Assembly: GCA_045541135.1 (NCBI GenBank)
Contig: JAZQIO010000088.1
Location: forward strand, 12,136 to 76,135
Reading direction: 5' to 3'
Source: Clostridia bacterium
GTDB lineage: Bacteria; Bacillota; Clostridia; Monoglobales; Firm-18
Length of the DNA: 64,000 nucleotides
Positions 37,740 to 63,326 of this stretch are shown here, in pieces. Under the pieces are notes generated by a model. The model saw only the letters and a program-made list of their open reading frames with translations. It had not been told where the DNA came from and ran no database searches. Within the stretch, counting starts at the first letter, position 1, and every line of letters starts with the position of its first letter. The translations under genes and the position numbers were made by a program.

Positions 37740-40700
37740 TTACTCAAATATTTTATGTGGTGCAAGTGGAACTGCTGTATTTAATGTATCCAGAAGGAAT
37801 ACCTTTGTTGTAACAGTTTCGCTATTTAAAGTATATTCGTAATCCACAAGCTTTTCGGTTACAGGCTTTATATGTTTATCACAAATAGCACCCTTGCTGT
37901 TATAACCAACTATAATAAGTGCAGGCTGCAGGCCGTAATTTTCATTCATTGAAGAAACTGAAGCCTTAACGGTTTTACCTGAATTTGTGGCACTAAGTGT
38001 CCACGAGCTTGGTGATACCACAGTCATTCCGTAAGTTCTTGTGAATGTGAATGTTCTGTTTGCAACCTCTGTATCTGCAACTGTTCCTGTTGCTGTAAAG
38101 GTTATTGGTGTTGGGGCAGTAACCTTGGTAAGTAATTTACCGTTTACATCAATTATTGACGGGTTACCGGAAGACCATGTTACACCTCTTATTGCAGGAA
38201 TATTAAGACTACCGTCAACAAGCAATGGATTACCCGCATATAATTTTGCAGGTAGAGCATTTATTGAAGTAAAACGTTCATCCTCTGCCTTTTCAATTTC
38301 ATAAATCTTAACATTTTTAATCCATACATAAGAACCTACACTGCTTGCATCCATGAATGTAAGCTGGAAGTCAGGCAGATATGTGCCCGGTTTTTCAGTC
38401 CATGTAACAACACCGTTAGTACTCTTTGAAACAACGTTATATGGGAAGTTCATAGCCTTTGGTTCAACTGCATCGTCTACAAAGACTGTGTATGTCTTAT
38501 TAATTGTATCAAATACCACACGAAGCTTCCATTCTTCATCGGCATTGAAATTCTGAAGTCCTACATTACCAACATCAAGTCGTATATTATCCTTTTGAGT
38601 ATTTGCTGTACGGACAATATTCAGAGTATTTGTATATAGTCTGAAGTCAACAAAACTATTTACTGCTGCTGTAAGGTCGTCATTACTTGTACCAAAATTG
38701 AAGGATGAATATGTTGTCTTTACAGAACCGTTTTCCATACGTTCGGTATTTATATTCTGTTGGAATGTAATATCAACAGCATATACACCTGACATAAGGT
38801 TTGTAGTTGTCTTAGTCTGATTTTCAAGATCCTCAATAATTCTTCCGAATCGGATACGACCTACTGCACGCGAAGTACTGTTTGGAGTAACACCATCTGC
38901 TTTATACGGAGCAGAAACTATGTTTTCAAACTTGATACCATCTTTACCCATATTTGTAGCTTTATAATATGCATGCTCAGGAATGTAAACCTGCAAAAGT
39001 TCAGGATTTACTGCAGAGTCATATATTAAAGTACCTGCATGTGGGTCGACATCAGGTTCTTCAGGTGCAACAACACCATCAAAAGTGATTTTACCGTCTG
39101 TTACAGTAAATTCAAATTCTTCGCCATCATAAACTACCTTATTTGCAAGTGCCGCATTGAATGTAACATCATTAAGTGCTGTAGCATCGCCGTCTTTTAC
39201 AGAATAGTCAAGAACCTTATCATTAAGTACAAATGCAGCAGATGTTTCTTCTTTTGTCTGCATCGTGATATTTCCATTCTTAGAAACATAAGTACCGTTT
39301 ACCATATATACAGATTTGATAAAGCCTGTTTCATATTCTTCAACAAGCAATGTCTGTGCATCAGTTTCATAGGCACCAACTTTAACAACATCTTTTAAAC
39401 TTGCATCATTAAGATGGTAGTAAATGAAATTTCTTGATTCTTCTGTTGCTTTATTTGTTACAGTAAATTTAAAAGCATTTACCTGATTTTCATCATAAGT
39501 TGTTTTAATAGGAGTTGTTGTAACTTCAAAGTCTTCTCCAACATCCATTGGAAGAATAATTGTGCTGTATGTTGTTGTGCCTGCCTTTGTCTTTTTATAA
39601 ACTGCCTTATGGCTGTCTATGAACTGACCTGAATCTTCGGAGTACAAAGTTTTAACGGTTGTTGCCTCATCTATTTCATCAGGCTTTACAGGAACAAGCA
39701 TAACATTTGGCTCGTTTTCAAAGTTACTTCTTACAACCTTATTCTCATCAAATGTCATATTTGAACCGGGGTACAAGTGCCAGTTTTGTGTATAAACATT
39801 TTCAGATGTGTCATCATTTGGAATAACGTAATCTGTTACAACAAATATTTTAGCATCTTTCAAGAATGTTACACTACGCTGTGCCTGCTTTGAAGTTGTA
39901 TATGCATCTGTTGAATATTCAATAAAGTCATAGTGCAGATTACTGTCGAAGCATTCTTCCTTACCGTCCTTATTGGGAAGGGTAGCAATTGCAGTTTTTA
40001 TAGTCGGATCTATTGCATTGGTTTCCGGATCAAGATAATTTTTATAGTCGTTTACAGTAAGAATGTTGTGCTGTTGCGGACTTATCATATAGTTACGGAT
40101 ATTACCTGTAAGGATAGCACCGTAGCCCGGGTCTACAAGTAAGAACTTATCGTAAGCATACATTGCAACGGAAAGTGCATCCTTATGACCGTGCGAGCCT
40201 ACCATTTTGTTTGTAAAGGACATTGCGACTGCGCCATCATCCCACGATTCACGCATAAATGTACGTAAGCCTACGGGATAGTTGGTTGTAGCATTTTCAG
40301 GCAACCAGCCCTTACTTCCCCCACTTCCCATATATGCTATAATCGGGTCACCCTCAAACAGATTATTATACCATCTTGTAAAGGTTGATGAATTAGTTGA
40401 GTACGGATTTGTATTGTCACCAAGACCAAAACCTCCGCCACCGGGAGCTGACTGCTTGAAAAGTGACATTACAAGGTTATAGATAACATTTTCCGTATTT
40501 GCGTTATATGGAGATTCTGCACCCAGATCTTGCATCATAGCATAAGGTGAACTGAATGTTCCCAGAATAGTGCTTGTATAACCCTGAGCAAGTTCAAGTG
40601 ACATACCGTCTTCAAATACAAAGTCGTTTGTTACACGTTCGTTTTCTGATCTTGTGCATTCAAGCCAGTCATTGTATCTTGCAAATTCAGGATATCTTGC

Positions 40701-43115
40701 ACATGTAGCATATACAGCACCTGTTGAATATGTAGCCCAGTTGTTGTAATGTTTTCCATATTCATTATAATTCTTATATTCTGTTGCAAGCCACAGATGT
40801 TTTAAGAATGCGGTAAATCTGTTTGGAGTCATGTAAGGACTGTTTATAAGTCTTAATGTATCCTGAGCAATAGTTGCAATGTGACCTGAATTATCAAGTG
40901 AGTTCATAACATCAGGTTCAGTACCCAATGAATTTACAAGAGCCATATGCTGTCTTATAGTTGTATAACCGTACTTTTCGTAGTTCGGCTCATATACAGG
41001 CTCGTTTGTTCTGCCTTTATCCTTTAAATATTCCATATAGCTATATAGGTCAGCAACTGAACCTACTTCGCCACCACGGTGATAACCACAGGTTTTACCC
41101 TTAACAGATGTATTGTTAGATGTTACATAATCCCAACACATCATATCGTTTGCAGAGAAATAAAAATGTTCGCTGAATGTATCAAAGCATACATATTCTT
41201 CCTGCCAACTACTGTCGCAATGCCAGTAAAGAAGCATTATTTTTTCCGGGTCAGAACCTGTATGTTCTGCTGTGATTTTTATATAAGCACTTTCAGCTTT
41301 TGAACCTCTTTTAAATTTGGAAATATCAAAACCTATGTACGCACGCTTCATTCTGTCATCATGGTTTCTGTGAACACCCGATTCTTCGGCAAGAAGTATT
41401 GTTTCACTGCCGTAATTGGTTTTTGAATACTGACCTGCCTGAATGTATGAGTCTTTTATAGCAGGGCATTCATGGGTAGTACCGTCTGAAAGTGTAACTA
41501 CAAGCACCGGAGGTGTTGATGATTCTCTTGAATAAATACGCGCCTGATTTTTATACTTATCTATTGAACCAATCATAGTTGAAAAGCATGTGAATGAACC
41601 GATAGCTTCATTAAGTCGATTGGTTACATCAACTGTAACTTCACCTTTGTTCTTTGGAATAGTAAATATGTTAATAGGGAATGAACTTATGTAACTTGTG
41701 GGGTATGCATTACGTGATAGATATTCGTACATTATTTTGTGATATGACTGATTTGCAACAGTCAAAGATGTCTGCTTTGTCGCCTTTTCATCAAAATGAC
41801 GCTGGTAATAAGCCTTAAGCTCTACCTTTGCAGTTTCGTAATTGCCTGATTTTGCTGCTGCTTCTACCTTTGCCATATCCGGGAAATCTGCATATCTGAA
41901 GTATGGATTTAATTCCCAGCTTCCCTTTGTGGCATTCCATTTACCAAAGAACGCTTCATCGGAAATGTGCATAGGGTCATCGAAGATAGGATAACCGTCT
42001 TCAATTTCTCCGCGTTCAGGCATTGTATACCATTTTTCTTCATTACTGCTATTAGGATTAATTGTAGTTGTTACAGCAACCCTGTTGCTGATACCTGTAA
42101 CATTCAGGTGATATGACGGTCTTAATGTAACAGTCTTACCGTCTGAAGTTTTACCTTCAATTTCACAATAAATTTCAACATTAGTTGGATCTGATGCAGA
42201 TTCTCTCTGTATTTTACCAAACTGATTCATAACATTATGATCTGAAGATATCCATTTAATACCCGGAACATCCCATGGTAGTGTAACATTTGTTGTTACA
42301 TTATCAGGGTCAGCTACAAGGTTTTTAGGCAAGGTTGATAAAATAGCCTTGGTTTCTTCACTTAGAGTTATTTGTGAATCCCCATCTGTTTCTACAACAA
42401 CAGAGCTTATATCCAGATATGAATCCTTAGCCATTCTTTCAAGGTTAGCAATTGTAAGGCTATCTACAAACCCCTTGCTTGCCTTATTAGAATTAATATT
42501 CAAAGAAGTACCTGAAGCAATTGTAGAACCACCGTTAAGTTGAACAGTAAGTTCATCATTTACTGTGTCAATGTTTACAACCAAAGTATTTTCATTTCCG
42601 GTTGCATAAGACTTCAAACTACTGTTTTCCACTGTATTTCCCGACGCAGAACCCGAATTAAGCACACTGACCTTGTCCTCGTAAATTCTCAGGTTTACAT
42701 ATCCCGGAATTGACATATTATAGAAAGCATTTCCACTCAATGAAGAATTATTTTTTGTTTTGTACTTAAATGTAATCTTTACATTTCCTGAAAAGCCCTG
42801 AGACATTATTACAGAATCCGTATCAGAAGATGTGAAATCCTGATAAAGACCAAGATAAACCGTACCATCCCATTCTCCATTACTTGTTATACCATCATCC
42901 TTATAACGTTTTTGATCGTTCTGAGTAATTCTTACGCCGTTTCCGCTTTCAGAAAATGTTGCATAAGTATGAGCTGATGTCACCTCCCAATTAGAAAATG
43001 CCGAAAAATCAAATGTAGAAGTCGCAGCCTCTACTTTTTCAGGCATAACCGGAAGCATGGTAATGCACATTATTGCAACAATTACCAGACTTAATATTTT
43101 TTTATGTATTTTCAT
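37740..43115 (-). CDS. Secreted ~1,790-aa multidomain heparinase II/III-like polysaccharide lyase family protein
   Basis: Signal peptide ending VEAAT. Two LamG/jelly-roll-like modules (N-terminal and at ~aa 1280-1500). Two short Ig-like 'ITW.SS' modules. An alginate-lyase/heparinase N-domain-like helical region (AAAKSGNYETAKVELKAYY). A DNRLRE/CBM-like insert (RAYIGFDISKFKRGSKAESAYIKI). Heparinase II/III C-domain signature MVGSHGHKDALSVAMYAY...VDPGYG. The ATG at 43115 follows a GGGGGTG RBS. Confidence 0.75.
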   Translation of the reverse strand: MKIHKKILSLVIVAIMCITMLPVMPEKVEAATSTFDFSAFSNWEVTSAHTYATFSESGNGVRITQNDQKRYKDDGITSNGEWDGTVYLGLYQDFTSSDTDSVIMSQGFSGNVKITFKYKTKNNSSLSGNAFYNMSIPGYVNLRIYEDKVSVLNSGSASGNTVENSSLKSYATGNENTLVVNIDTVNDELTVQLNGGSTIASGTSLNINSNKASKGFVDSLTIANLERMAKDSYLDISSVVVETDGDSQITLSEETKAILSTLPKNLVADPDNVTTNVTLPWDVPGIKWISSDHNVMNQFGKIQRESASDPTNVEIYCEIEGKTSDGKTVTLRPSYHLNVTGISNRVAVTTTINPNSSNEEKWYTMPERGEIEDGYPIFDDPMHISDEAFFGKWNATKGSWELNPYFRYADFPDMAKVEAAAKSGNYETAKVELKAYYQRHFDEKATKQTSLTVANQSYHKIMYEYLSRNAYPTSYISSFPINIFTIPKNKGEVTVDVTNRLNEAIGSFTCFSTMIGSIDKYKNQARIYSRESSTPPVLVVTLSDGTTHECPAIKDSYIQAGQYSKTNYGSETILLAEESGVHRNHDDRMKRAYIGFDISKFKRGSKAESAYIKITAEHTGSDPEKIMLLYWHCDSSWQEEYVCFDTFSEHFYFSANDMMCWDYVTSNNTSVKGKTCGYHRGGEVGSVADLYSYMEYLKDKGRTNEPVYEPNYEKYGYTTIRQHMALVNSLGTEPDVMNSLDNSGHIATIAQDTLRLINSPYMTPNRFTAFLKHLWLATEYKNYNEYGKHYNNWATYSTGAVYATCARYPEFARYNDWLECTRSENERVTNDFVFEDGMSLELAQGYTSTILGTFSSPYAMMQDLGAESPYNANTENVIYNLVMSLFKQSAPGGGGFGLGDNTNPYSTNSSTFTRWYNNLFEGDPIIAYMGSGGSKGWLPENATTNYPVGLRTFMRESWDDGAVAMSFTNKMVGSHGHKDALSVAMYAYDKFLLVDPGYGAILTGNIRNYMISPQQHNILTVNDYKNYLDPETNAIDPTIKTAIATLPNKDGKEECFDSNLHYDFIEYSTDAYTTSKQAQRSVTFLKDAKIFVVTDYVIPNDDTSENVYTQNWHLYPGSNMTFDENKVVRSNFENEPNVMLVPVKPDEIDEATTVKTLYSEDSGQFIDSHKAVYKKTKAGTTTYSTIILPMDVGEDFEVTTTPIKTTYDENQVNAFKFTVTNKATEESRNFIYYHLNDASLKDVVKVGAYETDAQTLLVEEYETGFIKSVYMVNGTYVSKNGNITMQTKEETSAAFVLNDKVLDYSVKDGDATALNDVTFNAALANKVVYDGEEFEFTVTDGKITFDGVVAPEEPDVDPHAGTLIYDSAVNPELLQVYIPEHAYYKATNMGKDGIKFENIVSAPYKADGVTPNSTSRAVGRIRFGRIIEDLENQTKTTTNLMSGVYAVDITFQQNINTERMENGSVKTTYSSFNFGTSNDDLTAAVNSFVDFRLYTNTLNIVRTANTQKDNIRLDVGNVGLQNFNADEEWKLRVVFDTINKTYTVFVDDAVEPKAMNFPYNVVSKSTNGVVTWTEKPGTYLPDFQLTFMDASSVGSYVWIKNVKIYEIEKAEDERFTSINALPAKLYAGNPLLVDGSLNIPAIRGVTWSSGNPSIIDVNGKLLTKVTAPTPITFTATGTVADTEVANRTFTFTRTYGMTVVSPSSWTLSATNSGKTVKASVSSMNENYGLQPALIIVGYNSKGAICDKHIKPVTEKLVDYEYTLNSETVTTKVFLLDTLNTAVPLAPHKIFE

Positions 43116-43138
43116 AAACACACCCCCATATATGCAAC

Positions 43139-43193
43139 ATTATATCATAAAACAAGATTAAAAAAAACTCGTAATATTACACAAATATTACAC
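43139..43193 (-). promoter_or_regulatory. Extended -10 promoter plus tandem direct repeats upstream of the distal giant gene
   Basis: The - strand has TATGATATAAT (TGn-TATAAT) at 43139-43147. AATATTACAC occurs twice (43173-43182 and 43184-43193), one helical turn apart. Confidence 0.45.
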
Positions 43194-43203
43194 GTTTTTT
43201 TAT

Positions 43204-43236
43204 GCAAAAAAACAGCACAGAAAATCTGTGCTGTTT
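43204..43236 (-). terminator. Intrinsic terminator after the proximal giant lyase-like gene
   Basis: The - strand reads AACAGCACAG-atttt-CTGTGCTGTT followed by TTTTTTT, starting 8 nt after the stop. Confidence 0.85.
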
Positions 43237-43243
43237 TAAATTA

Positions 43244-46200
43244 TTAATTGAAAATATAGTGTTTATAAAGGGGAATAACTGTTGATATACCGTCAAACAA
43301 AAATACCTTTGTTTTAACTGTGCCGTTACTTACTGTATAAGTGTAATTTTCAAGTTTGCCCTTTACTTCTTCTACCTTCTTGCCGATTAGCTTTCCCTTT
43401 GCATCATATTCGGCAATTACCATATAAGCAACCATTGAAGCATCGTCGGAAACATTTGTTACTGATGCTGTAACTACGTTATCTGATTTCGAAGCTGTAA
43501 GCTTCCAAAGGCTTGGAACCACATTCATATTATACATTTTACTGAATTTATATGTACGTTTAACTTCTGTATCCGAAACAGTGCCTGATGCTGTAAATGT
43601 TATCGGGGTTGCTTCTGCCACCTTTGATTTAAGTACACCGTTTATTCCTATAAGGTCGGTATTTGAAGATGTCCATGTTACGCCGCTTAAAGCAGGTACG
43701 GAAAGGTTACCGAATACTGCATTTGGATTACCTTCCAGTAACTTTGCCGGCAATAAATTTATGACATTATAACGTTCATCTTCCTTAGATTCAATCTCAT
43801 ATATTTTTACATTGTTAATCTGAACATAAGAACCAACATTATTAGCCTTCATCAATGAAATCGCAAAGTCAGGAACTAAATTGCCCTTTGTATTGATATT
43901 ATACGGAAAATTCATTGCTCCACGTTCCAGAACATCATTTACAAACACTGTATATGTTTTAGTCTCTGTATCAACAACAAGACGAAGTGTCCACTCCTTG
44001 TCTGCCTCAAAGTTCTGCATACTAACTTTATCGACATCGTTTCTTATACCGTCTGCCTGAGTATTTTCGTATCTTATAATGTTTACCTTTTCGGTATACA
44101 GACGAAATTCTATAAGCTGGTTTGAAAAACCGGATTTTAATGTTCCATCAGCATTTTCAGCAGCAAGACCAAAGTGCATAGTTGCGTATGTAGGCCAGTT
44201 TTTACCGTCTTCATTTACTCGATCAGTTACAATATTCTGTTGAATAGTCATTTCTATTGCATACTTACCTGACATAAGGTCCGTAACCGTCTTTGTATTA
44301 TTTTCCTCATCTTCAAAAATACCGCTGAATCGAATTGAGCCTACGGCATTTCCTCCACCGCTTTGGGTGCTATCCGATTTAACACTTTCAAAACGGATTC
44401 CTCCGCCTTCCTGACCGATTGTATTTGTTGCCTTATAAAATTCATTGCTGTTGTTAAGGTATACATTTAAAAGTTCAGGATTAACATCTGAATCGTACAC
44501 CAGTGTACCTATATCAGGTGATGCTGTAACATCGATATCTTCCTTAACATCTGCAAATGTCATATTGCCCTCAACAACTGCAAAGGGAACATTTTCTGTT
44601 TTATTGTATTTTACAGAAGTTGCAAGTGATGAATTTATAAGTGTGTTTTCAAGGACTTTTATATCACGTTCGGAAGAATGGAAATCAAGCACACCATCCG
44701 TAATATTGAATGAAAGATTTGCCGCACTTCCGTCAACAGTTTTTATTATATTTACAGAACCTTTATTTACAAAAGTACCGTCAACCATGTAAAGTGAAAT
44801 AACATTACCTTCTGTATCTTCTTCCACCAAAAGAGTATTTGCATCTGTTGAATATTCGCCAACATTTACTGTTGTCTGCAGTGATTCTTCATTTACATGG
44901 TAGTAATAGAATTTACTCTGTTCACCTGTAACTTCATTTTTAACCGTAAATGAGAACAAATTAATATTTTCGTCACTCAAAGCATTTGTAAGCTTTGTTG
45001 TTGTAACGTCAAAATTCTCACCAATATCCATTGGAAGAATAATTGTACTGAATACGCCATTACCTGTTTTGTTTCTGTAAAGCATACCCTTTTCACTATC
45101 GTTAATCTGTCCGCCGTTTTCAGAATACCAGGTACCGCGAACTTCTGTTTTATCAATGGTTGCAGGGTCAACAGGCACTATCATTACGTTTGGCTCATCT
45201 GCAAAATGACTTTCTATAACCTTTGTAGTAGGGTCTATTGTCATTTCCGCACCGGGATACAAATGCCAATTTTGTGCAAACTCATTTGTAACTGTTGTAT
45301 CATTGGGAATGTGGTAATCTGTTACAATCCAGAACTTCTGATTTTTAAGGAACATTACACTTCGCTGTGACTTTTCGGTTGATGTATATGCAGGTGTGTT
45401 ATATTCCACAAAATCATAATTATCGTTGCAATCAAAAATCATCTGTGTGCCGTCAACACTCTGTACAGTATCATAGGATTCTGCACGAACATCGTTAATT
45501 ACATAACCGTCTACAATGTAGTTTTTACTGTCGTTAACAGTAACCACATTATGCTGTTGCGGGCTTTTCATGTAGTACATTGTATTACCCGTTTGTACAC
45601 TACCGTAGCCCTGATCCGTAAGCAGATATTTACCGTAAGCAAACATCGCTATTGAAAGAGCATCTTTATGACCATGAGAGCCAACCATTTTATTTGTCAT
45701 TGCAAGCGCAAGAGCATTCTGCGACCAGTCGGAACGCATAACTGTTCTTTGTCCCGAAGGATAATTGCTTGTGCACAATTCGGGTAACCAACCGCCTTTT
45801 CCTGCCATATAGGCAATTGTCGGGTCATCACTGAACAGGTAGTTGTACCATTTTGTAAATGTTGATTTGTATGACCTATATGGGTCATAACCGTCACCCA
45901 TATTAAAGCCACCAAAGTATGGACCGCTCTGATTAAACAAAGACAACACTATATCATGAATAATTTCTGTTGTTTTTTCACTGTAAGGCAATGGCTCGCC
46001 TGTAAGTTCGTATGTTGAAAACGGTGTTGCAAAAGTACCGAGAAGTGTACTGTGATAGTTATGCGAAAGCTCTAAGCACATACCGTCTTCAAATGTAAAG
46101 CCGTCGAAAACACGATCATTTTCTTTTTTTGTTTCTTTCGTCCATATATCGTGTCTTTCAAACTCCGGAAAACGTGCACACATATTATATACGGCACCTG

Positions 46201-48589
46201 TTGAGAATGTTGCAAAGTTATTTTTAGCTTTACCGTACCAGTTATAAACATGGTAGTCCGTAAGCAACCAAAGGTGCTTTAAGTAAGCTGTGAAAACCTC
46301 ACCTGTCATATACTTACTGTTCATAAGTCGCAGTATATCCTGAGATACACCCGAAATATGTGTTGACATATCAAGCTGATTCATAACATCAGGCTCTACG
46401 CCTATGGAATTTATAAGTCCCATATACTGACGAAGATATGTATAAGCATATTTTTCAGGATACTGTTCAAGTTCAGGATGCTGAACATAGTAACTGTACG
46501 AGGTTGCAAGTGTTGCAGGTTCCGTATCACGATGGTAACCGCACACCTTACCCTTTATTGTAGTTGAATTTGAAGTTACCCAATCCCAGCAATACATATC
46601 GTTACATGAAAAATACATATGGTCTACGAATGTGTTCCAGCAAACTTTATTTTCAAGCCAGCTGCTTTCACCAATCCAATATGCAGCCATAAGCTTTTCA
46701 TCGTCTGTACCCGTATGACGTGCACGAAGTATAATTTTTGCATCTGTTATGGTATCGCTACGTTTTAGTCCCGACACATCAAAGCCTATGAACATTCTCT
46801 TTGTTCTGTCTTCAGGGTCCGCCCATGAGCCTGCCTCTTCTGCATACAAAACCGTATCTTTTCCAAAGTTTGTATTGCTGTACTGTCCGCCCTGAAGTGT
46901 GGCATCTTTTTCAACCGTAAATATTCTTTTCTCACCATTTACAGTAGCCTCAATAACAGGAGCGTAAGCAGATTCTCTTGAATATACCTCTGCCTGATTT
47001 CTGTACTTATCTACAGATGCAACAACCAATGTAAATATACCGTATGAGCCTTTTGCTTCATTAAGACGGTTTGTTACATCAATTTTAACATCAGACCATT
47101 CCTTTGGAATGCTGAACATATTTATTACATAGTTACTTATAAAGTTTGTAACATAAGCATTTCGTGACATAAGTTGATACAGTGCATCATAATATTCTTT
47201 ATTTGCATTACTTATGGAATTTACCGAAGAAACTCTCTCCGATGCCAATGTGCGATAGTATACCACAAGTTCATCTTTTGCAGTTTCATAATCTCCTGCT
47301 TTGGCTGCAGCTTCTACCTTTGCCATATGGGAATAATCGGAATATCTGAAATACGGTTCAAGTGTCCATATTGATTTTGAGGAATCCCATTTTCCGAAAA
47401 ATGCCTCATCGGTAATATAATCTGGGTCATCAAACATAGGATAACCGTCTTCTTCATTTCCGCGTTGTGGCATTGTGTACCATTTTTCGGTAGTGTCTGT
47501 TGCTCCCGGAGTAGGGTTTATAATGGTTGTATTTTCACTTCTTGATGTAACACCCGTAACATTTAATGGATACTGAACCTCAAGTGCAAAAACTTTACCG
47601 TCTGTGGTTTTAACATCAAATGTACCTGAAATAACAACCTTTGTAGGATCAGTTTGTGATGTTCTGCTGATTCTGCCTGTTTTAGTCATAACATTTTTAT
47701 CAGATGTTGACCATTTAATTCCTTCAATATGTGTCGGAAGTGTAATATTTTCTGTTACATTATTGCTGTCGGGAGCAAGGCTTGCAGGAAAACCATTAAT
47801 AATTGTCTGTGTTACTTCATCAAACACAAATGTCGCTTCTGTATCACTTTCAACCTTAATTGAAGTGAATTTTAAATATGCACCCTCATTCATACGCTGC
47901 ATATTACTTACACTGATGCTTTTAACACCGCCTGCACCTGCTTTGCCTGCAACTTTGTTTACGGAATCACCTTTTGAAACATTGCCGTTATGCGTAACAG
48001 TTACATAGTCATTTACTGTATCAATCTCTATAACAACCTGCTTATCTGTACCTGCACCGCCGGCAGATTTAAGTGCCTGTGTTGACATTGTGGAATTATT
48101 AACACTGCTTGTATTCAAAACAGTTACATTACCATTATACAATCTTAAATTTATATAGCCGGCTATATTCAAAGGGTAATATGAATTAGCGGAATCTGTT
48201 TCCGATTTTTGGTCTATAACATAATCTATCGTAATTTTAACATTACCTGTTGCACCGGGAGCAATTATTTGCATACCACTTGTGCTATCAGACTTCAATA
48301 TGGAATTTATATTTTTTATATATGTGCCGTCAAGTGTAGTATTTTTCTCTGTAGTTCCTTCTTTATATGCCGTCTGCTTTGTCTGCAGAATTCTTACACC
48401 GCCTGTAGTTTTCTGAAAAGCCGCATGGGTAGGCTGTGTACTTATCTTCCAACCGAAATTATCAGAAAAGTCAGTCATTTCACCATAGTTTTCCTCCATT
48501 ACGGTAGCAGCAAAAATATTCATCGGCAACATCGTTGCAATGAATACAACCATAAGCATTATAGATAAATATTTTTTAATATTTTTCAT
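43244..48589 (-). CDS. Secreted 1,781-aa paralog of the heparinase II/III-like multidomain protein
   Basis: Same domain order as 37740..43115. Alignable by eye along its whole length (for example MVGSHGHKDALSIAMFAY...TDQGYG, AAAKAGDYETAKDELVVYY, RMFIGFDVSGLKRSDTITDAKI). Signal peptide ending IFAAT. GGGGGTA RBS. Confidence 0.75.
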   Translation of the reverse strand: MKNIKKYLSIMLMVVFIATMLPMNIFAATVMEENYGEMTDFSDNFGWKISTQPTHAAFQKTTGGVRILQTKQTAYKEGTTEKNTTLDGTYIKNINSILKSDSTSGMQIIAPGATGNVKITIDYVIDQKSETDSANSYYPLNIAGYINLRLYNGNVTVLNTSSVNNSTMSTQALKSAGGAGTDKQVVIEIDTVNDYVTVTHNGNVSKGDSVNKVAGKAGAGGVKSISVSNMQRMNEGAYLKFTSIKVESDTEATFVFDEVTQTIINGFPASLAPDSNNVTENITLPTHIEGIKWSTSDKNVMTKTGRISRTSQTDPTKVVISGTFDVKTTDGKVFALEVQYPLNVTGVTSRSENTTIINPTPGATDTTEKWYTMPQRGNEEDGYPMFDDPDYITDEAFFGKWDSSKSIWTLEPYFRYSDYSHMAKVEAAAKAGDYETAKDELVVYYRTLASERVSSVNSISNANKEYYDALYQLMSRNAYVTNFISNYVINMFSIPKEWSDVKIDVTNRLNEAKGSYGIFTLVVASVDKYRNQAEVYSRESAYAPVIEATVNGEKRIFTVEKDATLQGGQYSNTNFGKDTVLYAEEAGSWADPEDRTKRMFIGFDVSGLKRSDTITDAKIILRARHTGTDDEKLMAAYWIGESSWLENKVCWNTFVDHMYFSCNDMYCWDWVTSNSTTIKGKVCGYHRDTEPATLATSYSYYVQHPELEQYPEKYAYTYLRQYMGLINSIGVEPDVMNQLDMSTHISGVSQDILRLMNSKYMTGEVFTAYLKHLWLLTDYHVYNWYGKAKNNFATFSTGAVYNMCARFPEFERHDIWTKETKKENDRVFDGFTFEDGMCLELSHNYHSTLLGTFATPFSTYELTGEPLPYSEKTTEIIHDIVLSLFNQSGPYFGGFNMGDGYDPYRSYKSTFTKWYNYLFSDDPTIAYMAGKGGWLPELCTSNYPSGQRTVMRSDWSQNALALAMTNKMVGSHGHKDALSIAMFAYGKYLLTDQGYGSVQTGNTMYYMKSPQQHNVVTVNDSKNYIVDGYVINDVRAESYDTVQSVDGTQMIFDCNDNYDFVEYNTPAYTSTEKSQRSVMFLKNQKFWIVTDYHIPNDTTVTNEFAQNWHLYPGAEMTIDPTTKVIESHFADEPNVMIVPVDPATIDKTEVRGTWYSENGGQINDSEKGMLYRNKTGNGVFSTIILPMDIGENFDVTTTKLTNALSDENINLFSFTVKNEVTGEQSKFYYYHVNEESLQTTVNVGEYSTDANTLLVEEDTEGNVISLYMVDGTFVNKGSVNIIKTVDGSAANLSFNITDGVLDFHSSERDIKVLENTLINSSLATSVKYNKTENVPFAVVEGNMTFADVKEDIDVTASPDIGTLVYDSDVNPELLNVYLNNSNEFYKATNTIGQEGGGIRFESVKSDSTQSGGGNAVGSIRFSGIFEDEENNTKTVTDLMSGKYAIEMTIQQNIVTDRVNEDGKNWPTYATMHFGLAAENADGTLKSGFSNQLIEFRLYTEKVNIIRYENTQADGIRNDVDKVSMQNFEADKEWTLRLVVDTETKTYTVFVNDVLERGAMNFPYNINTKGNLVPDFAISLMKANNVGSYVQINNVKIYEIESKEDERYNVINLLPAKLLEGNPNAVFGNLSVPALSGVTWTSSNTDLIGINGVLKSKVAEATPITFTASGTVSDTEVKRTYKFSKMYNMNVVPSLWKLTASKSDNVVTASVTNVSDDASMVAYMVIAEYDAKGKLIGKKVEEVKGKLENYTYTVSNGTVKTKVFLFDGISTVIPLYKHYIFN

Positions 48590-57661: not shown

Positions 57662-59035
57662 TCATGAACCGATTTTTTTACGATTTTTAAGTAAACCTAT
57701 AAGCATAATTAATCCCGATACCAAAACACCTGCAAAAAGCGGGTCAAAGGGAAGAACCTTCCACAAATTAAACAGCAGTACGGTTAACGGTCCGAAAATT
57801 ATTGAAAGACCTGCATAGGGATTTGAAACCCGTCCGGACAAAAATATTGCAAAGCACAGCGGAACAAAAACTGTTGCTCCCCGAAGTCCCATTGACATAA
57901 ATGAAAAGTTTAATATGGTATCTCCTATTGGTCCCATTGACATAACGCATGCCAAAAGCAAAATGAAAATTGTAAGCTTATTTTCTGTCACTTTACAGTG
58001 ATTTACACTGCTTTTAACCATAGGCAAAACATCTTTTCTTATAACAGATGCAATACCAAGTGCTAATCCTGCGCCCGTACCGACAACAGCGATAAACAAA
58101 GCTCCAAGCACTATGCCTCCCAATAGCGGTGGCATATATTCCGTTACAAAATAAGTAAGTGCAATTTTTGAAGTAATTTCCGGATGTACACTGCGCATAA
58201 AAAGTCCAACCAAAATTCCACCTATTCCTATAGGCGGAACAAGCACGGCACTTAAAAGTGCACCCTTAACTGCCTGTTTTTCTGAATTTGCCATAAAAAT
58301 TGCCTGTGCATAGCTTTGGGTGGTAATGACACCCAGAATAAGCGAAAGACAAGCACCTAAATCCTTGCCCATGCCACGTGCAAACAAGTTGTAAAATTGA
58401 ATATTTTGTGGATTATCTATTTTATCAACACTTTCGAAAAAGCCCGACAAACCGCCGCAAAGATATAACACCAGAATACCCACAGACAGCATACTTACAT
58501 AAAGTAAAAGCATTTTTAAAATTCCTACCAAGCCACTGCCCTTTACTCCGCCAAAAGCAATATAAAGAATCATAATAATTGCAGAAAAAGTCAACGAAAG
58601 GTACAACGGCAAATTAGGAAAGACCACTGCAATAATGGCAGTTGACGCTATAAGCTGTGAAATTATACTTATAAAGCTTCCAAGTGACGAAAGTGCAGAT
58701 GCCATTACACCTGTTTTACTTCCGTACTCACCTGTAATAAAGCCCATTAAGGTTGTATTGCCGCTTCTGTAAAATGGTTTTGCATATACCAAAGCCAAAA
58801 TAAGGCAGGCAATACCTCCACCGAGAGTAAACCACCATGCACTCATACCGTATTGATAGGCAAGCTGTGCTGTGCCTATGGTTGAAGAACCGCCTACAAG
58901 AGTACCCATAATTGCACCTGCAACCACAAATGAATTTGCACCCTTTTTACTTTTAGCCATTTTACCGGAAAGAACACTTACAACAACAAGAGTAATAATT
59001 GTAATTACAATTCCAATAATCATTTCTGTTTTCAT
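57662..59035 (-). CDS. Sodium:solute symporter (SSS) family transporter
   Basis: 457 aa, ~13 TM. Gly-rich helices and overall SSS-like pattern. Confidence 0.65.
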   Translation of the reverse strand: MKTEMIIGIVITIITLVVVSVLSGKMAKSKKGANSFVVAGAIMGTLVGGSSTIGTAQLAYQYGMSAWWFTLGGGIACLILALVYAKPFYRSGNTTLMGFITGEYGSKTGVMASALSSLGSFISIISQLIASTAIIAVVFPNLPLYLSLTFSAIIMILYIAFGGVKGSGLVGILKMLLLYVSMLSVGILVLYLCGGLSGFFESVDKIDNPQNIQFYNLFARGMGKDLGACLSLILGVITTQSYAQAIFMANSEKQAVKGALLSAVLVPPIGIGGILVGLFMRSVHPEITSKIALTYFVTEYMPPLLGGIVLGALFIAVVGTGAGLALGIASVIRKDVLPMVKSSVNHCKVTENKLTIFILLLACVMSMGPIGDTILNFSFMSMGLRGATVFVPLCFAIFLSGRVSNPYAGLSIIFGPLTVLLFNLWKVLPFDPLFAGVLVSGLIMLIGLLKNRKKIGS

Positions 59036-59089
59036 TATGATACTCCTTTCCGTAAAATCAACAAATACATTCTAACACAAAAAAGAAAA

Positions 59090-59131
59090 AAAGACAACAA
59101 AAAAACGGCACATCCGAAAGAATGTACCGTT
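59090..59131 (-). terminator. Intrinsic terminator closing the small-ORF array
   Basis: The - strand reads AACGGTACAT-tctttcgg-ATGTGCCGTT followed by TTTTTGTTGTCTTTTTTT. Confidence 0.75.
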
Positions 59132-59177
59132 CAGAAAACTTTAATCAGTTAAGCTATGCAGTCAAGGAAATTATGTA

Positions 59178-59519
59178 TTAACGTATATAAGGCCATATAA
59201 AATCATCTGCACTTCCGGTTTTAGACCATACTGTTTGCTCCCATTTATCATACTTCCATTCACCGCTCTTTTTGGAAAAAGTTAATACATCACCACCCGT
59301 TCGATTTTTAGAAACATAGTAAACACGTGCATAAGTATCTGAATACTCTAATACTTTTAAATATTCTATTTCTCCAATCATAGTGTTTTCCTGATATATC
59401 GTATTAAACTGATACCCATATTTATATGTTAAAATTTCGCATTTTAAAATTGCAATACCCCAAATCAACATAAACAGAACTATAAACGCCAAAAAAATTC
59501 TAAAGCAAATTTTTTTCAT
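59178..59519 (-). CDS. Array ORF 6: small membrane-anchored hypothetical protein
   Basis: Start moved to the ATG at 59519 (MKKICFRIFLAF...), 7 nt after AGGAGG. Single N-terminal TM. Confidence 0.6.
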   Translation of the reverse strand: MKKICFRIFLAFIVLFMLIWGIAILKCEILTYKYGYQFNTIYQENTMIGEIEYLKVLEYSDTYARVYYVSKNRTGGDVLTFSKKSGEWKYDKWEQTVWSKTGSADDFIWPYIR

Positions 59520-59560
59520 AATTAACCTCCTATTCAAATCCCAATAGCACTGTAACGGAA

Positions 59561-59624
59561 AGGACAGGGGGACGGTTCTCTTGTCTACCTATTTCAGGAC
59601 GGTAGAACCGTCCCCTTGTCTTTT
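59561..59624. repeat. Array repeat copy A (~60-bp imperfect palindrome)
   Basis: AGGACAGGGGGACGGTTCTCTTGTCTACCTATTTCAGGACGGTAGAACCGTCCCCTTGTCTTTT. 17-bp arms at 59563-59579 and 59604-59620. Confidence 0.9.
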
Positions 59625-59631
59625 GTGTTTG

Positions 59632-59868
59632 TCAAAAACAACTAAATGTTATTACTACCTTATCAAATATATCTTCCAACTTTTCACCATCCACACAATA
59701 TTTTCCAACATCATTTGGATTTTGATATATTTTTTCTGTTAAATAATTATAAAATTCCATAACATGTATGCCTTTTTCGGAATGTGTAATAGAATAATTT
59801 TTATTAGCGTATGTAAATTCTATTTCTCCACCACGCATAATGTTATTATATAACTCAATTATACTCAT
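59632..59868 (-). CDS. Array ORF 5: 78-aa hypothetical protein
   Basis: Start moved to the ATG at 59868 (MSIIELYNN...), 7 nt after AAGGAGA. The track's longer N-terminus runs through a GC-rich hairpin and has no RBS. Confidence 0.55.
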   Translation of the reverse strand: MSIIELYNNIMRGGEIEFTYANKNYSITHSEKGIHVMEFYNYLTEKIYQNPNDVGKYCVDGEKLEDIFDKVVITFSCF

Positions 59869-59960
59869 AAACTTAATTCTCCTTTTACTTTGTGCAAATA
59901 CTGGAGGGCAGAATATCCACCCTCCTGCCATTGGTCGTTCAGTCAGTAATTAAAACCAAT

Positions 59961-60377
59961 TTATTGCGTTGTTGTTGGATCCATAATCCATATACCTTTT
60001 GTTTGCCCTTCATTTTCAAAAAAACAATGTCTGATACCACATACACCATTGTCATCTTCGTATATTATAATTGCAGAGTTATCTTTCAAATGATAATAAC
60101 ATCTTATAATTCCAAACCCTGTAGTACCATTGGGTTCTCCTAAAACACCTACAATTTCCTCAATACTCATGCCTTTTTTAACAAACAAAAAGTCATCCAC
60201 TTCTAAACTACGCTCAATATGCTTATAATCATTTGTAATAATTGGTATTTTCACTAATTCTTCAACTAATTCCTGTTTGTTGCTCATTGCTTCACTACTT
60301 TCCATCTCATAGTTTTTATAATACAAATTGAAACTACTTAAACAAACTACAATAAATGCAAAAAACAAAACCCTCAA
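59961..60377 (-). CDS. Array ORF 4: membrane-anchored or secreted hypothetical protein
   Basis: The in-frame TTG at 60377, 6 nt after AAGGAGG, gives M-RVLFFAFIVVCLSSF... (signal anchor). Confidence 0.55.
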   Translation of the reverse strand: MRVLFFAFIVVCLSSFNLYYKNYEMESSEAMSNKQELVEELVKIPIITNDYKHIERSLEVDDFLFVKKGMSIEEIVGVLGEPNGTTGFGIIRCYYHLKDNSAIIIYEDDNGVCGIRHCFFENEGQTKGIWIMDPTTTQ

Positions 60378-60459
60378 ATTACCCCTCCTTAGAAATGGCA
60401 TAATATCCTACAAAAGATGTATAGCCAGCTTTATCTGCAGATACCATTGGATTTCCAAA

Positions 60460-60502
60460 AGGACAGGGGGACGGTCAAGACAGCAGAACCATCCCTTGTC
60501 TC
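60460..60502. repeat. Array repeat copy B (short variant)
   Basis: AGGACAGGGGGACGGTCAAGACAGCAGAACCATCCCTTGTCTC. Both arms are recognisable, but the central ~24-nt spacer is replaced by 9 nt. It overlaps the stop codon of ORF 3. Confidence 0.8.
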
Positions 60503-60839
60503 ATTGATTAGAAAAAACAATGCTTCCCCTTAATTTTTCATATACTACTACATAATAAAACAAATCTCCAAATTTCAAATTATAATTCTTTACATATTCA
60601 ATTGCTTGATTAAAGCTTATATTTATATTTTCTTCATAAGTTAATGCATAATTATAATTATAATACCAATTATCATATGTGTAACTCAAATCCTTATTAA
60701 TAACATCCCCACCTAAAATAAGAAATTGATTTTCGTATAACGATTTAATAACGTAAACAATATCAGAATAATTCCACGCCAATTCCCCAGTACAAACGTT
60801 TATAGCTCTGTTTCTTATTTTTTCTTGTAAAAATTCCAA
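60501..60839 (-). CDS. Array ORF 3: 112-aa cytoplasmic hypothetical protein (immunity-protein-like)
   Basis: TTG start 9 nt after AAGGAG. No signal peptide. Tyr/Asn/Trp-rich. Its size and composition resemble polymorphic-toxin immunity proteins, but I cannot confirm family membership. Confidence 0.5.
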   Translation of the reverse strand: MEFLQEKIRNRAINVCTGELAWNYSDIVYVIKSLYENQFLILGGDVINKDLSYTYDNWYYNYNYALTYEENINISFNQAIEYVKNYNLKFGDLFYYVVVYEKLRGSIVFSNQ

Positions 60840-60856
60840 TTCTAATCACTCCTTAA

Positions 60857-60920
60857 AGGACAGGGGGGACGGTTCTCTTGTCTACCTATTTCAGGACGAT
60901 AGAACCGTCCCCTTGTCTTT
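60857..60920. repeat. Array repeat copy C
   Basis: AGGACAGGGGGGACGGTTCTCTTGTCTACCTATTTCAGGACGATAGAACCGTCCCCTTGTCTTT. It abuts the stop codon of the CPCC gene at 60921. The left arm has one extra G. Confidence 0.9.
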
Positions 60921-61184
60921 TTATCTTTTTTCCATATTCATTGGTTTTCTAACAAAATTAATCATGTCTTTTTTTATAGCTCCAAATTCCAAAAAATTTT
61001 TTTTTGCTTCATTTAATGACACTCCATTGGAACCAAAATTTTTATCTGGGTTTAAATATTGTAAAGAGTCATCTTCCCATCCACATACCTCACATATTTC
61101 AAAAGTCCCAGGATATTCATATGGTTCAAGTGGTTTTTCTAATAAAGTGTAATAACCGCAACATTTACATTGATATTTTTTCAT
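60921..61184 (-). CDS. CPCC-family cysteine-rich small protein
   Basis: 87 aa. YQCKCCGYYTL ... FEICEVCGWEDD matches the CPCC pattern (Cys-rich, Zn-ribbon-like). Confidence 0.7.
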   Translation of the reverse strand: MKKYQCKCCGYYTLLEKPLEPYEYPGTFEICEVCGWEDDSLQYLNPDKNFGSNGVSLNEAKKNFLEFGAIKKDMINFVRKPMNMEKR

Positions 61185-61258
61185 AAACCTCGCCTCTATT
61201 TATCTGTTGAATCCAATAATCCATACCATTAGTTGGTTTAAAATATGTTGATATTGCA

Positions 61259-61364
61259 AGGACAGGGGGGACGGTTCTCTTGTCTACCTATTTCAGGACG
61301 ATAAAACCGTCCCCAAAGTGTCTCACTTTATTGGGTCACCTCAATCCGTCCCCTGTGTTTTGTT
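61259..61364. repeat. Array repeat copy D (rearranged right arm)
   Basis: Normal left arm and spacer. The right arm is truncated to AAAACCGTCCCC. A 31-bp unrelated segment containing the AAAGTG-tct-CACTTT hairpin follows, then a second partial right arm CCGTCCCCTGTG. Confidence 0.85.
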
Positions 61365-61369
61365 ATTGA

Positions 61370-62041
61370 TTACGGCATCAATAATTTTTTATCTTTTTCT
61401 AATAAAAGTGCTAGAAATCCATCTTGTTCATAAGTCATTTCGTCAATTTTCTTTTTTTCTATTTTTGATATTACACCATTTTTATTACAATGTACTTTAA
61501 CTTTGTACCCATCGGAGGTATAATGCGTTGTGTATTTTTCTATATTAACCATTCCAAGTTCAAACATACCATACTCGCCATAAGGATCTATAGACTTAAC
61601 ATCATCAAAGGTGTTTTTACCTATATTAAGGCTATCGAAATCTGACAAAGCAACCCTTTGTCCCAAGTAAAATAGCGAAAATGGATCAATTTCGTTATTC
61701 TCAAAAGAATAAAAACAAAATGCATACTGACCATCATCAGACTTATATACAAAATATGCATATTTGCCATCTTCGGATAATCTGACACATTCCGGTGGCA
61801 TTTTTTCTAAAACCTCATTTACATAATACGGCATATTCATCAAATCATCAGGAGAATATATTGTCCATATAACATCATCCGCATTTACTTCATTATTAAT
61901 CATACTCAATATTTTTTTATCCATTTCACTTTCATAAATATCAACCTTCGTATTTTTAGTTGATTTATCACAACCACAGAAAAGAATAATTAACAAAGTC
62001 AATACTATTAAAAATATATATTTTGAGTATAAGATTCTCAC
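61370..62041 (-). CDS. Array ORF 1: putative lipoprotein
   Basis: The GTG at 62041, 6 nt after AGAGGTG, gives a signal peptide ending ILFCGC-DKS (lipobox-like). The track start at 62059 is a TTG without an RBS. Confidence 0.55.
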   Translation of the reverse strand: MRILYSKYIFLIVLTLLIILFCGCDKSTKNTKVDIYESEMDKKILSMINNEVNADDVIWTIYSPDDLMNMPYYVNEVLEKMPPECVRLSEDGKYAYFVYKSDDGQYAFCFYSFENNEIDPFSLFYLGQRVALSDFDSLNIGKNTFDDVKSIDPYGEYGMFELGMVNIEKYTTHYTSDGYKVKVHCNKNGVISKIEKKKIDEMTYEQDGFLALLLEKDKKLLMP

Positions 62042-62087
62042 ATTGCACACCTCTCTCAATAAATTTTTAATCTGTTATAGCCATATA

Positions 62088-62150
62088 AAGGACAGGGGGA
62101 CGGTTCTCTTGTCTACCGATTTCAGGACGATAGAACCGTCCCCTTGTCTT
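62088..62150. repeat. Array repeat copy E (precedes the first array ORF)
   Basis: AAGGACAGGGGGACGGTTCTCTTGTCTACCGATTTCAGGACGATAGAACCGTCCCCTTGTCTT. Confidence 0.9.
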
Positions 62151-62234
62151 AAGTAACTGTGACAAAGATACAAACCATTGGAAACATCTCATTATGCAAA
62201 CGATAAAATATATAATATATAATGTTACATATTT

Positions 62235-62264
62235 ATTATATCATACCCAAAGTTTTTTTGTAAA
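62235..62264 (-). promoter_or_regulatory. Candidate extended -10 promoter for the small-ORF array
   Basis: The - strand reads TTTACA, 18 nt, then TGaTATAAT, immediately downstream of the gap terminator. Repeat E would then lie in the 5' leader. Confidence 0.35.
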
Positions 62265-62296
62265 CAAAAAAAGTGCACCCCGAAAGGGATGCACCG
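62264..62296 (-). terminator. Intrinsic terminator after gap
   Basis: The - strand reads GTGCATCCC-tttc-GGGGTGCAC followed by TTTTTTTG. Confidence 0.8.
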
Positions 62297-62309
62297 TTTG
62301 AAACTTAAA

Positions 62310-63326
62310 TTAGTTAAGTTCAGCGAAGTATTTGATTGTTCTAACCATCTGGCTTGTGTATGAGTTTTCGTTATCATACCAAGAAACAACCTGTACCTGT
62401 GTGTAGTCTGTGCCTTCGATAGGTGATACCATTGTCTGAGTAGCATCAAACAATGAACCGTATTTCATACCGATAACGTCTGAAGAAACAAGTTCTTCTT
62501 CTGTGTAACCGTATGATTCTGTAGCAGCAGCCTTCATAGCAGCGTTGATTTCATCAACTGTAACCTTACCCTTAACAACTGCAACAAGAATTGTTGTAGA
62601 ACCTGTAGGTGTAGGTACACGCTGAGCTGAACCGATAAGCTTACCGTTAAGTTCAGGAATAACAAGACCGATAGCCTTTGCAGCACCTGTTGAGTTAGGA
62701 ACAATGTTTACTGCAGCAGCACGTGATCTTCTAAGGTCACCCTTACGCTGTGGACCGTCAAGAGTCATCTGGTCGCCTGTGTAAGCGTGGATTGTGCTCA
62801 TGATACCGCTTTCGATAGGAGCAAGATCGTTAAGAGCTTTAGCCATTGGAGCCAAGCAGTTTGTTGTACATGAAGCAGCAGAAATAACTGTATCGTCAGC
62901 CTTTAGTGTTTCATGGTTAACATTGTAAACGATTGTAGGAAGATCGTTACCTGCAGGAGCAGAAATAACTACCTTCTTAGCACCGGCTTCGATATGAGCT
63001 GAAGCCTTTTCCTTAGATGTGTAGAAACCTGTGCATTCCAAAACAACGTCAACACCGATTTCGCCCCAAGGAAGATCTTTAGCATCTTTTTCAGCATAGA
63101 TCTTGATTGTCTTACCGTCAACTGTGATTGAATCTTCACCGGCTGAAACAGTATCACCAAGAGCATATCTGCCTTGAGATGAGTCATACTTTAGTAGGTG
63201 AGCAAGCATCTTAGGGCTTGTCAAGTCGTTGATAGCAACAACTTCATAACCTTCTGCACCGAACATCTGACGGAAAGCCAAACGACCGATACGACCAAAA
63301 CCATTAATTGCAACTTTTACTGCCAT
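62310..63326 (-). CDS. gap: Type I glyceraldehyde-3-phosphate dehydrogenase
   Basis: 338 aa. NGFGRIGR N-terminus. Active-site [10 protein letters not shown]. Confidence 0.95.

Follow-up and report, generated by a model that had tools for sequence, protein, structure and literature searches.

The RAYT proteins are widespread, single-copy and apparently domesticated transposases, and we know of no function for them. REP sequences of Escherichia coli have roles in mRNA stability and recombination. Together with BIMEs and REPINs, and linked to RAYT Groups 2 and 3 in E. coli and Pseudomonas, they form hairpin-folding inverted doublets that lie outside genes, at gene 3′ ends or inside operons, bracket the RAYT gene and are presumed to be mobilized in trans. 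In the related TIRtrons, a single-copy Y1/HUH transposase with a C-terminal extension (TIRYT) is flanked by inverted repeats; TIRYT repeats share the motif GGGGWSAS and occur as dimers and clusters (PMC3733652), in moderately abundant families. RAYT Group 1 is present in Clostridia (PMC5581495). TIRtron/TIRYT, Group 1 and the subclass 2.1 of a third survey (PMC6006769) are overlapping classifications that correspond to the transposase clade discussed here, and the three surveys list no Firmicutes repeat family. Here, we describe a repeat of this kind in 64,000 nucleotides of Clostridia DNA (hereafter the window, meaning the whole stretch analysed). Five copies of a hairpin-forming doublet lie in the spacers of a six-gene array downstream of gap. 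We consider it likely that the doublet is a REPIN/BIME-type, RAYT-linked repeat within a strain-variable array, where homologous recombination between doublets produces deletions. It resembles TIRtron repeats in a GGGGWSAS-type motif (7/8 positions), in its dimers and clusters and in the single-copy Y1/HUH partner seen in other genomes, and differs from them in that the doublets form junctions in a gene-cassette array.

The element consists of two copies of a 23-nt unit, GACARGGGGACGGTTCTCYTGTC, set in inverted orientation 12 nt apart, and each unit is itself an imperfect palindrome with a 6-bp stem (GACAAG/CTTGTC). An initial annotation, made from the letters alone, had described five co-oriented copies of ~60 bp, each 0–10 bp after the preceding stop codon, with 17-bp arms that share one conserved mismatch, an extra G in copies C and D, and no occurrence elsewhere in the 64 kb. 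All five copies are indeed present on the + strand (Table 1). The mismatch reads G.T on that strand and A.C on the gene-sense strand, and C and D have one additional G each. The length is right for the full-length copies, which are near-identical (~95% identity, few differing positions), and wrong for the shortened element B; the spacing is right for three of the four doublets that follow an open reading frame (ORF), and wrong for D, which starts 48 nt past the stop codon. Every copy sits in a spacer, one of them overlapping a stop codon. With an extra partial unit upstream of it, at 61344-61358, doublet D forms a three-unit cluster (61257-61358). Here, a 31-nt insert lies between direct repeats of the 8-nt core GGGGACGG (61297-61358) and may be the scar of breakage and joining at the core.

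Clustering of the element within the window is pronounced. Searches of the other 60.8 kb with exact and 3-mismatch patterns, and with nhmmer profiles of the doublet and the unit, found no further copy, even a degenerate one, so the clustering is real; shuffled sequence gave 0 pattern matches. Element-bearing spacers number 5 of ~7 within the island and 0 of ~45 outside it (Fisher p ~8e-6). BLAST of the element against plasmids and phages returned no match, and a literature search by sequence (GGGACGGTTCT, AGAACCGTCCC) returned unrelated primer sequences only.

The link to transposases comes from other genomes (L numbers denote contigs). In L027, a 276-aa Y1_Tnp protein (Pfam E=8e-18) is encoded between inverted units at 3249(+) and 4114(-). 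This protein scores 86.7 bits against NCBIfam REP_Tyr_transpos, above the cutoff of 80, versus 22 bits for IS200. The same inverted-unit bracket surrounds RAYT genes in Acetoanaerobium noterae, Petroclostridium sp. X23 and Geosporobacter ferrireducens, and the downstream unit of the last is identical to the window unit at 23/23 positions. RAYT homologs from viral contigs, found with a three-sequence alignment query where a single-protein query gave none, and from Sporomusa are more distant and also have flanking inverted repeats, with GGGGACAG, GGGGACGT and GGGGTCAG, which equal GGGGWSAS or come close to it. In these related loci GGGGACAG and GGGGTCAG fit the motif at 8/8 positions; the window's GGGGACGG fits at 7/8. 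The homologous proteins carry HUH and Y...NP motifs. Their clade comprises 6,239 homologs at E<=1e-20, the best organism-named matches being nearly all from Bacillota, and several sources annotate RayT. In Petroclostridium and Geosporobacter (L047:9936-10000, L048:8526-8590), the upstream terminal repeat of the RAYT gene leads directly into a TTGAC -35 box, which is followed by a -10-like hexamer, so the transposase may regulate its own promoter by binding the repeat.

Beyond RAYT genes, many Clostridia and phage-like contigs contain the unit, be it alone, in direct tandem or as inverted doublets whose loops differ, and several Clostridia families and their phages share its conserved core GGGGACGGTTCT. 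An Acetoanaerobium variant occupies at least 31 places in a 2.6-Mb record, 10 units lie in 5.9 kb of polysaccharide-synthesis genes in L027, and a 19-kb Geosporobacter locus has 7. In one Clostridia metagenome-assembled genome, full doublets of the window type follow GH2 glycosidase and sugar isomerase genes in the same orientation to the upstream gene. In an IMG/VR contig, the spacers of a phage head-tail operon contain five doublets of another subfamily, all in one orientation, which indicates that co-oriented arrays are not specific to cassettes. The window subfamily with its particular loop is rare: a diagnostic 20-mer matches 5 stretches among 185,579 species genomes and 6 in the JGI metagenome collection. 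Exact 20-mer scans of both collections gave few matches overall, mostly of the single unit in other arrangements, and the window's own species was not among them. The initial annotation had set a generic dispersed repeat, not enriched in arrays, against its cassette reading: the unit is indeed dispersed at unrelated intergenic sites elsewhere, but within the window it is strongly enriched in the array.

Some arrangements in these contigs stand on their own. L027 has direct tandem unit pairs 28-29 nt apart and clusters of mixed orientation (460-720 and 2086-2200), and several annotated ORF ends there run into units, giving the peptide tails ...GDGSPV and ...QENRPLV. The doublet-bearing phage contig L015 contains a perfect 24-nt tandem repeat, 3.9 copies of GTATATGCCCCTCGCAATGACGAA, at 4356-4449; it apparently belongs to a different dispersed family, with related copies near 2550-2720 by eye (similar peptide runs).

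Because its units flank RAYT genes and are dispersed as singles, tandems and doublets, we interpret the element as derived from a RAYT TIRtron and REPIN-like. Among its alternatives, the initial annotation had listed a REP/BIME-like element on which a RAYT-type transposase acts, and the inverted units around RAYT genes in four Clostridia genomes support this. An ordinary miniature inverted-repeat transposable element with 23-bp terminal inverted repeats, descended from a DDE-transposase insertion sequence, would likewise be short, multi-copy, bounded by terminal inverted repeats and polymorphic for presence and absence. However, we found no consistent target-site duplication around the copies, units occur singly and in direct tandems, and the only transposase gene that units bracket, in all four genomes, is Y1/HUH. 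Such a descent is hardly plausible.

Natural variation at the gap locus shows how the doublets relate to gene content. We compared contigs that encode an identical Gap protein or near-identical cassette genes and found at least five states of the locus (H0 to H4; Table 1). The doublets are junctions of cassette-block differences between strains. H2 lacks 1.64 kb (CPCC, Imm40, ORF3 and ORF2), and its junction falls inside a doublet. The hybrid doublet of H2 has the variant CCCCTTGTCC, which no window copy has at that position (doublet A has CCCCCTGTCC); a variant foreign to the window copies argues against mis-assembly. In H3, which lacks ORF2, 15 nt stand in place of window 59885-59624 with a breakpoint at the doublet edge, and the replaced tract appears to take in the downstream doublet. 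Element B is kept in L038 and L040. The gap terminator is kept in the relatives L003, L004, L038 and L049, and in L004 a different single-cassette island sits behind the array promoter of the window. Key arrangements are replicated in independent samples. The prediction in the initial annotation that ORF-plus-repeat modules shuffle between strains is supported: such blocks are gained, lost and re-joined, with junctions inside the repeat or at its edge.

The same cassettes also appear away from gap. Three genomic contexts were found for each of the CPCC, Imm40 and lipoprotein cassettes, and the homology stops at the edge of an element or within the core of a unit. At a second locus of the CPCC cassette (96-98% identity, five samples), the order is doublet, a 382-aa DUF5050 protein, doublet, CPCC, single unit, terminator and a clpC-like gene. 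Both homology breakpoints there are inside units, one on the 5′ border of the GGGGACGG core, the other on the 3′ border of GGTTCT. L002 and L040 share an upstream ORF, which a doublet connects to CPCC in the former and to Imm40 in the latter. The window, L040 and L039 all contain the Imm40 gene; a copy of 86% identity has ruvX-DUF1292 on one side and an unrelated region on the other, with flanking units of another subtype. The lipoprotein gene is found in the window, L055 and L054. In L055 (88% identity), homology begins exactly at the edge of doublet E, 62087, where a different, GGGGACG-type hairpin is present. A 62%-identical lipoprotein homolog stands alone without units, and tblastn of the lipoprotein against plasmids gave no match. 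The 1.6-kb contig L036 reads CPCC 3′ end, doublet, CPCC at positions 1-487, which could be a tandem CPCC duplication through the doublet or an assembly artefact.

In the scenario that we consider likely, the doublet is in effect a TIRtron that has lost its transposase gene. The 23-nt unit is the terminal inverted repeat that brackets the single-copy Y1/HUH RAYT gene (Group 1/TIRYT) in Clostridia, and the doublet is a miniature, non-autonomous hairpin repeat. A RAYT whose gene lies elsewhere in the genome presumably mobilizes it in trans, as single-stranded DNA. The accessory operon behind gap, which varies between strains, has gathered five copies in its short spacers. Since the doublets are direct repeats of ~65 bp with ~95% identity, recombination between them probably deletes or re-joins cassette blocks. 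Homologous recombination or replication slippage would account for deletions such as H2, and recombination with incoming DNA that shares doublets would swap cassettes. The doublets would in this way lend the cassettes portable homology, which would place the same ORFs elsewhere with breakpoints at the element. The confinement of the copies to the island could have come about through import of the island from a donor with many doublets, through hopping over short distances or through an active cassette mechanism.

Several points weigh against the scenario of a RAYT-linked repeat recombining within an immunity array. All window copies lie in one 3-kb island, a distribution that simple random transposition does not predict. 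A tblastn search with RAYT found no RAYT gene in the 64-kb window; we assume a cognate RAYT in the organism of the window and infer that it mobilizes the doublets there in trans. Unlike the repeats of RAYT Groups 2 and 3, the unit has no visible GTAG tag, and the element is therefore not a canonical REP; further differences from those repeats are the stem of only 6 bp in each unit, the Gram-positive anaerobic host and the copy number seen here, which is low and local, not in the hundreds. For subclass 2.1 RAYTs, no REP-like sequences were found in the earlier survey (PMC6006769). Most of the compared contigs are short metagenome assemblies that could in principle be mis-joined at repeats, and in L038 the upstream breakpoint falls 27 nt ahead of element B, within the Imm40-like ORF rather than in a doublet. 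Finally, support for an immunity role covers two of the six ORFs (Imm40-like and ORF1), while CPCC, the lipoprotein, ORF2 and ORF3 have no assignment.

Folding of the doublets bears on what they might do as RNA. The + strand folds at -43 to -48 kcal/mol and the gene-sense strand at -30 to -34 kcal/mol (z-scores -4 to -7), and the + strand hairpin, with G.T in place of A.C, is ~10 kcal/mol more stable. For doublets A, C and E and the L015 doublets at 3369, 3795 and 6361, folding of the strand antisense to the genes is favoured by 6-10 kcal/mol. The window and L015 subfamilies are two independent asymmetric ones, and in both the weaker A.C hairpin is on the gene-sense strand. In the polycistronic mRNA, the hairpins may act like E. 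coli REPs, as barriers to 3′ exonucleases or as partial attenuators that uncouple neighbouring cistrons, and those 0-10 nt past a stop codon could stall terminating ribosomes. Purely RNA-level punctuation (attenuators, terminators, processing sites or stabilizers copied with their genes, and not mobile DNA) would suit the high stability of the sense-strand hairpins and their position directly after three of the four preceding ORFs. Copies A and C even resemble intrinsic terminators on the + strand, with a T-run after the stem. Yet unrelated genomes and gene contexts contain near-identical copies, as do the surroundings of transposase genes, and the ORFs are unrelated, so the repeats were not copied along with them. 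As initially annotated, the sense strand lacks a U-tract, with only TTT after the hairpin. Rfam at the gathering threshold gave nothing over the whole window, and in E-value mode the island yielded only chance miRNA-like hairpins and no matching family. Punctuation as the whole explanation is very unlikely; an RNA role fits the RAYT-linked interpretation but cannot be the origin of the repeats.

A more active mechanism would make the doublets part of a Y1-transposase cassette system. Co-oriented doublets would serve as left and right ends around an ORF, as in IS200/IS605, and a RAYT would excise hairpin, ORF and hairpin as a single-stranded circle and reinsert it beside a doublet behind a fixed promoter, an integron analogue that builds immunity arrays. 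The conserved promoter and the unit after it are followed by different cassettes in the window and in L004, three cassettes recur in three contexts each with homology stopping at element edges or unit cores, and ORF2 with its downstream doublet looks like one module where ORF2 is absent. Moreover, the element is strongly enriched in the array, and all copies are co-oriented with a conserved mismatch and bulge. IS200/IS605 elements and PATEs are comparable in that a Y1 transposase recognizes imperfect hairpins on one strand, giving strand-specific, co-oriented copies; the present system differs in having a RAYT-scoring transposase without tnpB, and symmetric inverted units instead of distinct left and right ends. 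Homologous recombination between 65-bp repeats, however, explains every junction equally well. The breakpoints share no single fixed position in the unit, one of them is inside an ORF, and family doublets also separate phage structural genes and follow housekeeping genes, which are no cassettes. No RAYT is nearby (64 kb), and no circular intermediate was observed. Island-only clustering and the strand polarity shared by the two subfamilies lead us to keep a RAYT-driven cassette system in consideration, but we regard it as unlikely.

The layout also invites comparison with integrons, as the initial annotation proposed. The hairpins would be attC-type sites of a cluster of attC sites lacking an integron integrase (CALIN), and a tyrosine recombinase would be encoded elsewhere. 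As in integrons, one promoter heads promoterless, unrelated ORFs, each with one imperfect palindrome that has conserved unpaired positions, and cassettes vary by strain. Here, however, a search for RYYYAAC and GTTRRRY core sites found none inside a copy or up to 15 nt from one, and no pair of them on either strand of 59000-62400. Pfam searches of the ~45 ORFs of at least 130 aa in the 64 kb found no integrase (IntI), no XerD-like or other recombinase and no transposase. attC sites share structure, not sequence, whereas the copies here are ~95% identical in sequence. The unit flanks Y1/HUH transposase genes rather than integrases, and it also occurs as singles and direct tandems at ordinary genes. 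Bacteroidales rAID-1 arrays do combine immunity genes, repetitive intergenic sequences and a XerD-like recombinase (bioRxiv 10.1101/471110); the gene upstream of the present array is gap, no XerD-like recombinase is encoded in the window and the repeats are RAYT-linked. The integron reading is close to refuted.

What the array encodes can be judged in part. Heterogeneous polyimmunity loci are described as tandem, co-oriented, unrelated small genes without a toxin, with low GC and strain variation (PMC3482391), traits shared with rAID-1. The six minus-strand ORFs of the island are mutually unrelated, as first annotated (best pairwise E 0.05), the array is free of toxin genes and its content varies between strains. 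We found no toxin domain in the island or the neighbouring genes and no toxin in the rest of the window, and PADLOC gave no defence-system match for the six ORFs. The 112-aa ORF scores 24.2 bits against Pfam Imm40, just under the cutoff of 25, and its three homologs carry a precomputed PF15569 assignment. In Monoglobus pectinilyticus, the homolog of ORF1 has on one side a full-length RHS toxin accompanied by its immunity gene and, downstream, orphan RHS C-terminal fragments; this Monoglobus match was the one lead, at the protein level, from BLAST of the island against plasmids and phages. We surmise that the island is an orphan heterogeneous polyimmunity locus, a probable but unproven assignment.

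Table 1 Features of the island downstream of gap and states of the locus in relatives (positions in the window)
Feature	Position or contigs	Strand	Description
Intrinsic terminator of gap	62272-62295	-	Terminator scan; upstream border of variable island
Sigma-70-like promoter heading array	62235-62264	-	Strong; TTTACA, 18 nt, TG-TATAAT; 11/12 matches
Doublet E	62087-62150	+	Two inverted units, in 5′ leader of first ORF
Cassette 1, 223-aa lipoprotein-like ORF	61370-62041	-	Signal peptide and Cys; no family assignment
Doublet D	61257-61322	+	Degenerate outer arm; left partner of hybrid doublet in L049-L053
Cassette 2, 87-aa Cys_rich_CPCC protein	60921-61184	-	Pfam PF14206, E=5.6e-27
Doublet C	60855-60921	+	Abuts CPCC stop codon; Shine-Dalgarno of next ORF directly after
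Cassette 3, 112-aa Imm40-like protein	60501-60839	-	Pfam Imm40 E=5e-5, GGD motif
Element B	60458-60500	+	43-bp shortened doublet, loop deleted; overlaps Imm40-like stop codon
Cassette 4 (ORF3), 146-aa membrane-anchored protein	59961-60401	-	Weak BamE/SmpA-like match
Second hairpin family (GGCAGGAGRGTGGATWTTC...)	59900-59930	-	Between ORF3 and ORF2, T-run absent
Cassette 5 (ORF2), 78 aa	59632-59868	-	Not in strains L037, L038
Doublet A	59559-59625	+	Right partner of hybrid doublet in L049-L053
Cassette 6 (ORF1), 113-aa membrane-anchored protein	59178-59519	-	54% identical Monoglobus pectinilyticus gene
Intrinsic terminator ending array	59103-59132	-	Terminator scan
H1	Window		Full six-cassette array
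H2	L049-L053, five independent samples, 99.4-99.8% identical		Promoter, E, lipoprotein, hybrid doublet (D-like left flank, A-like right flank), ORF1
H3	L037, L038, two samples, 98% identical		New 36-nt leader, last 27 nt of Imm40-like ORF, B, ORF3, hairpin, 15 nt, doublet, ORF1
H4	L004, ~91% identical		Same promoter, one unit, 148-aa multi-pass membrane protein, array terminator
H0	L003		Island not present

The island spans 3.1 kb on the minus strand downstream of gap, bounded, as initially annotated, by the gap terminator and a second intrinsic terminator. The reported AT-richness also held, with 31.2% GC against 36.9% in the rest of the window. In the direction of transcription, with P for the promoter and T for the closing terminator, the order is P-E-lipoprotein-D-CPCC-C-Imm40-B-ORF3-(other hairpin)-ORF2-A-ORF1-T. 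Copies of the element separate the ORFs, as had been claimed, except between ORF3 and ORF2, where a different conserved hairpin is found. This hairpin (window 59911-59929, -) recurs in relatives (L001:390-408; L004:2378-2396; L033-L036; L037:135-153; L038:684-702). There, it has a T-tail and serves as the terminator at the end of an array; the window copy is internal to the array after ORF3 and has lost its T-run, which suggests that the present array is a fusion of two older units.

The terminator of gap and the one closing the array (62263-62298 and 59096-59131) are direct repeats, 75% identical and 3,167 bp apart, a likeness that could stem from duplication upon island insertion or from chance. 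The neighbouring gene for an SSF-family sodium:solute symporter (57662-59035, -) is variable as well, which extends the variable region to ~4.6 kb. It is not in L003 and L004, where the acyltransferase gene comes next, either directly or behind an aminotransferase gene. The genes of the window are otherwise ordinary chromosomal ones (~45 ORFs, Pfam), among them guaB, dus, xseA, nusB, lar genes and heparinase-like lyases. At 37740-48589 (-), two giant tandem paralogues (1,793 and 1,781 aa) that combine the N- and C-terminal domains of heparinase II/III with CBM96 are probably secreted polysaccharide lyases. GC skew in the window follows gene orientation, the direction of replication cannot be fixed from it and we make no claim of lagging-strand targeting.

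The locus ties a large Bacillota RAYT clade to a conserved repeat with the core GGGGACGGTTCT, where one survey (PMC6006769) had found no cognate repeats for this largest group of RAYTs (Group 1/subclass 2.1/TIRYT). Its natural strain polymorphisms place hairpin doublets at the junctions of gene-block gain and loss in a probable anti-toxin immunity array. It thereby offers a testable system for asking whether RAYT-linked repeats drive the modular evolution of accessory genes, and how orphan immunity repertoires are assembled in gut Clostridia, as a Gram-positive counterpart to the Bacteroidales rAID arrays. If the variation is driven by homology only, the locus is an instructive but ordinary case of repeat-mediated deletions. 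We give a small chance to the bolder idea that the doublets are recombination sites of a RAYT-driven, single-strand-DNA integron analogue that captures, excises and reshuffles immunity cassettes behind a resident promoter; were it true, the widespread 'domesticated' Group 1 RAYTs would gain a function.

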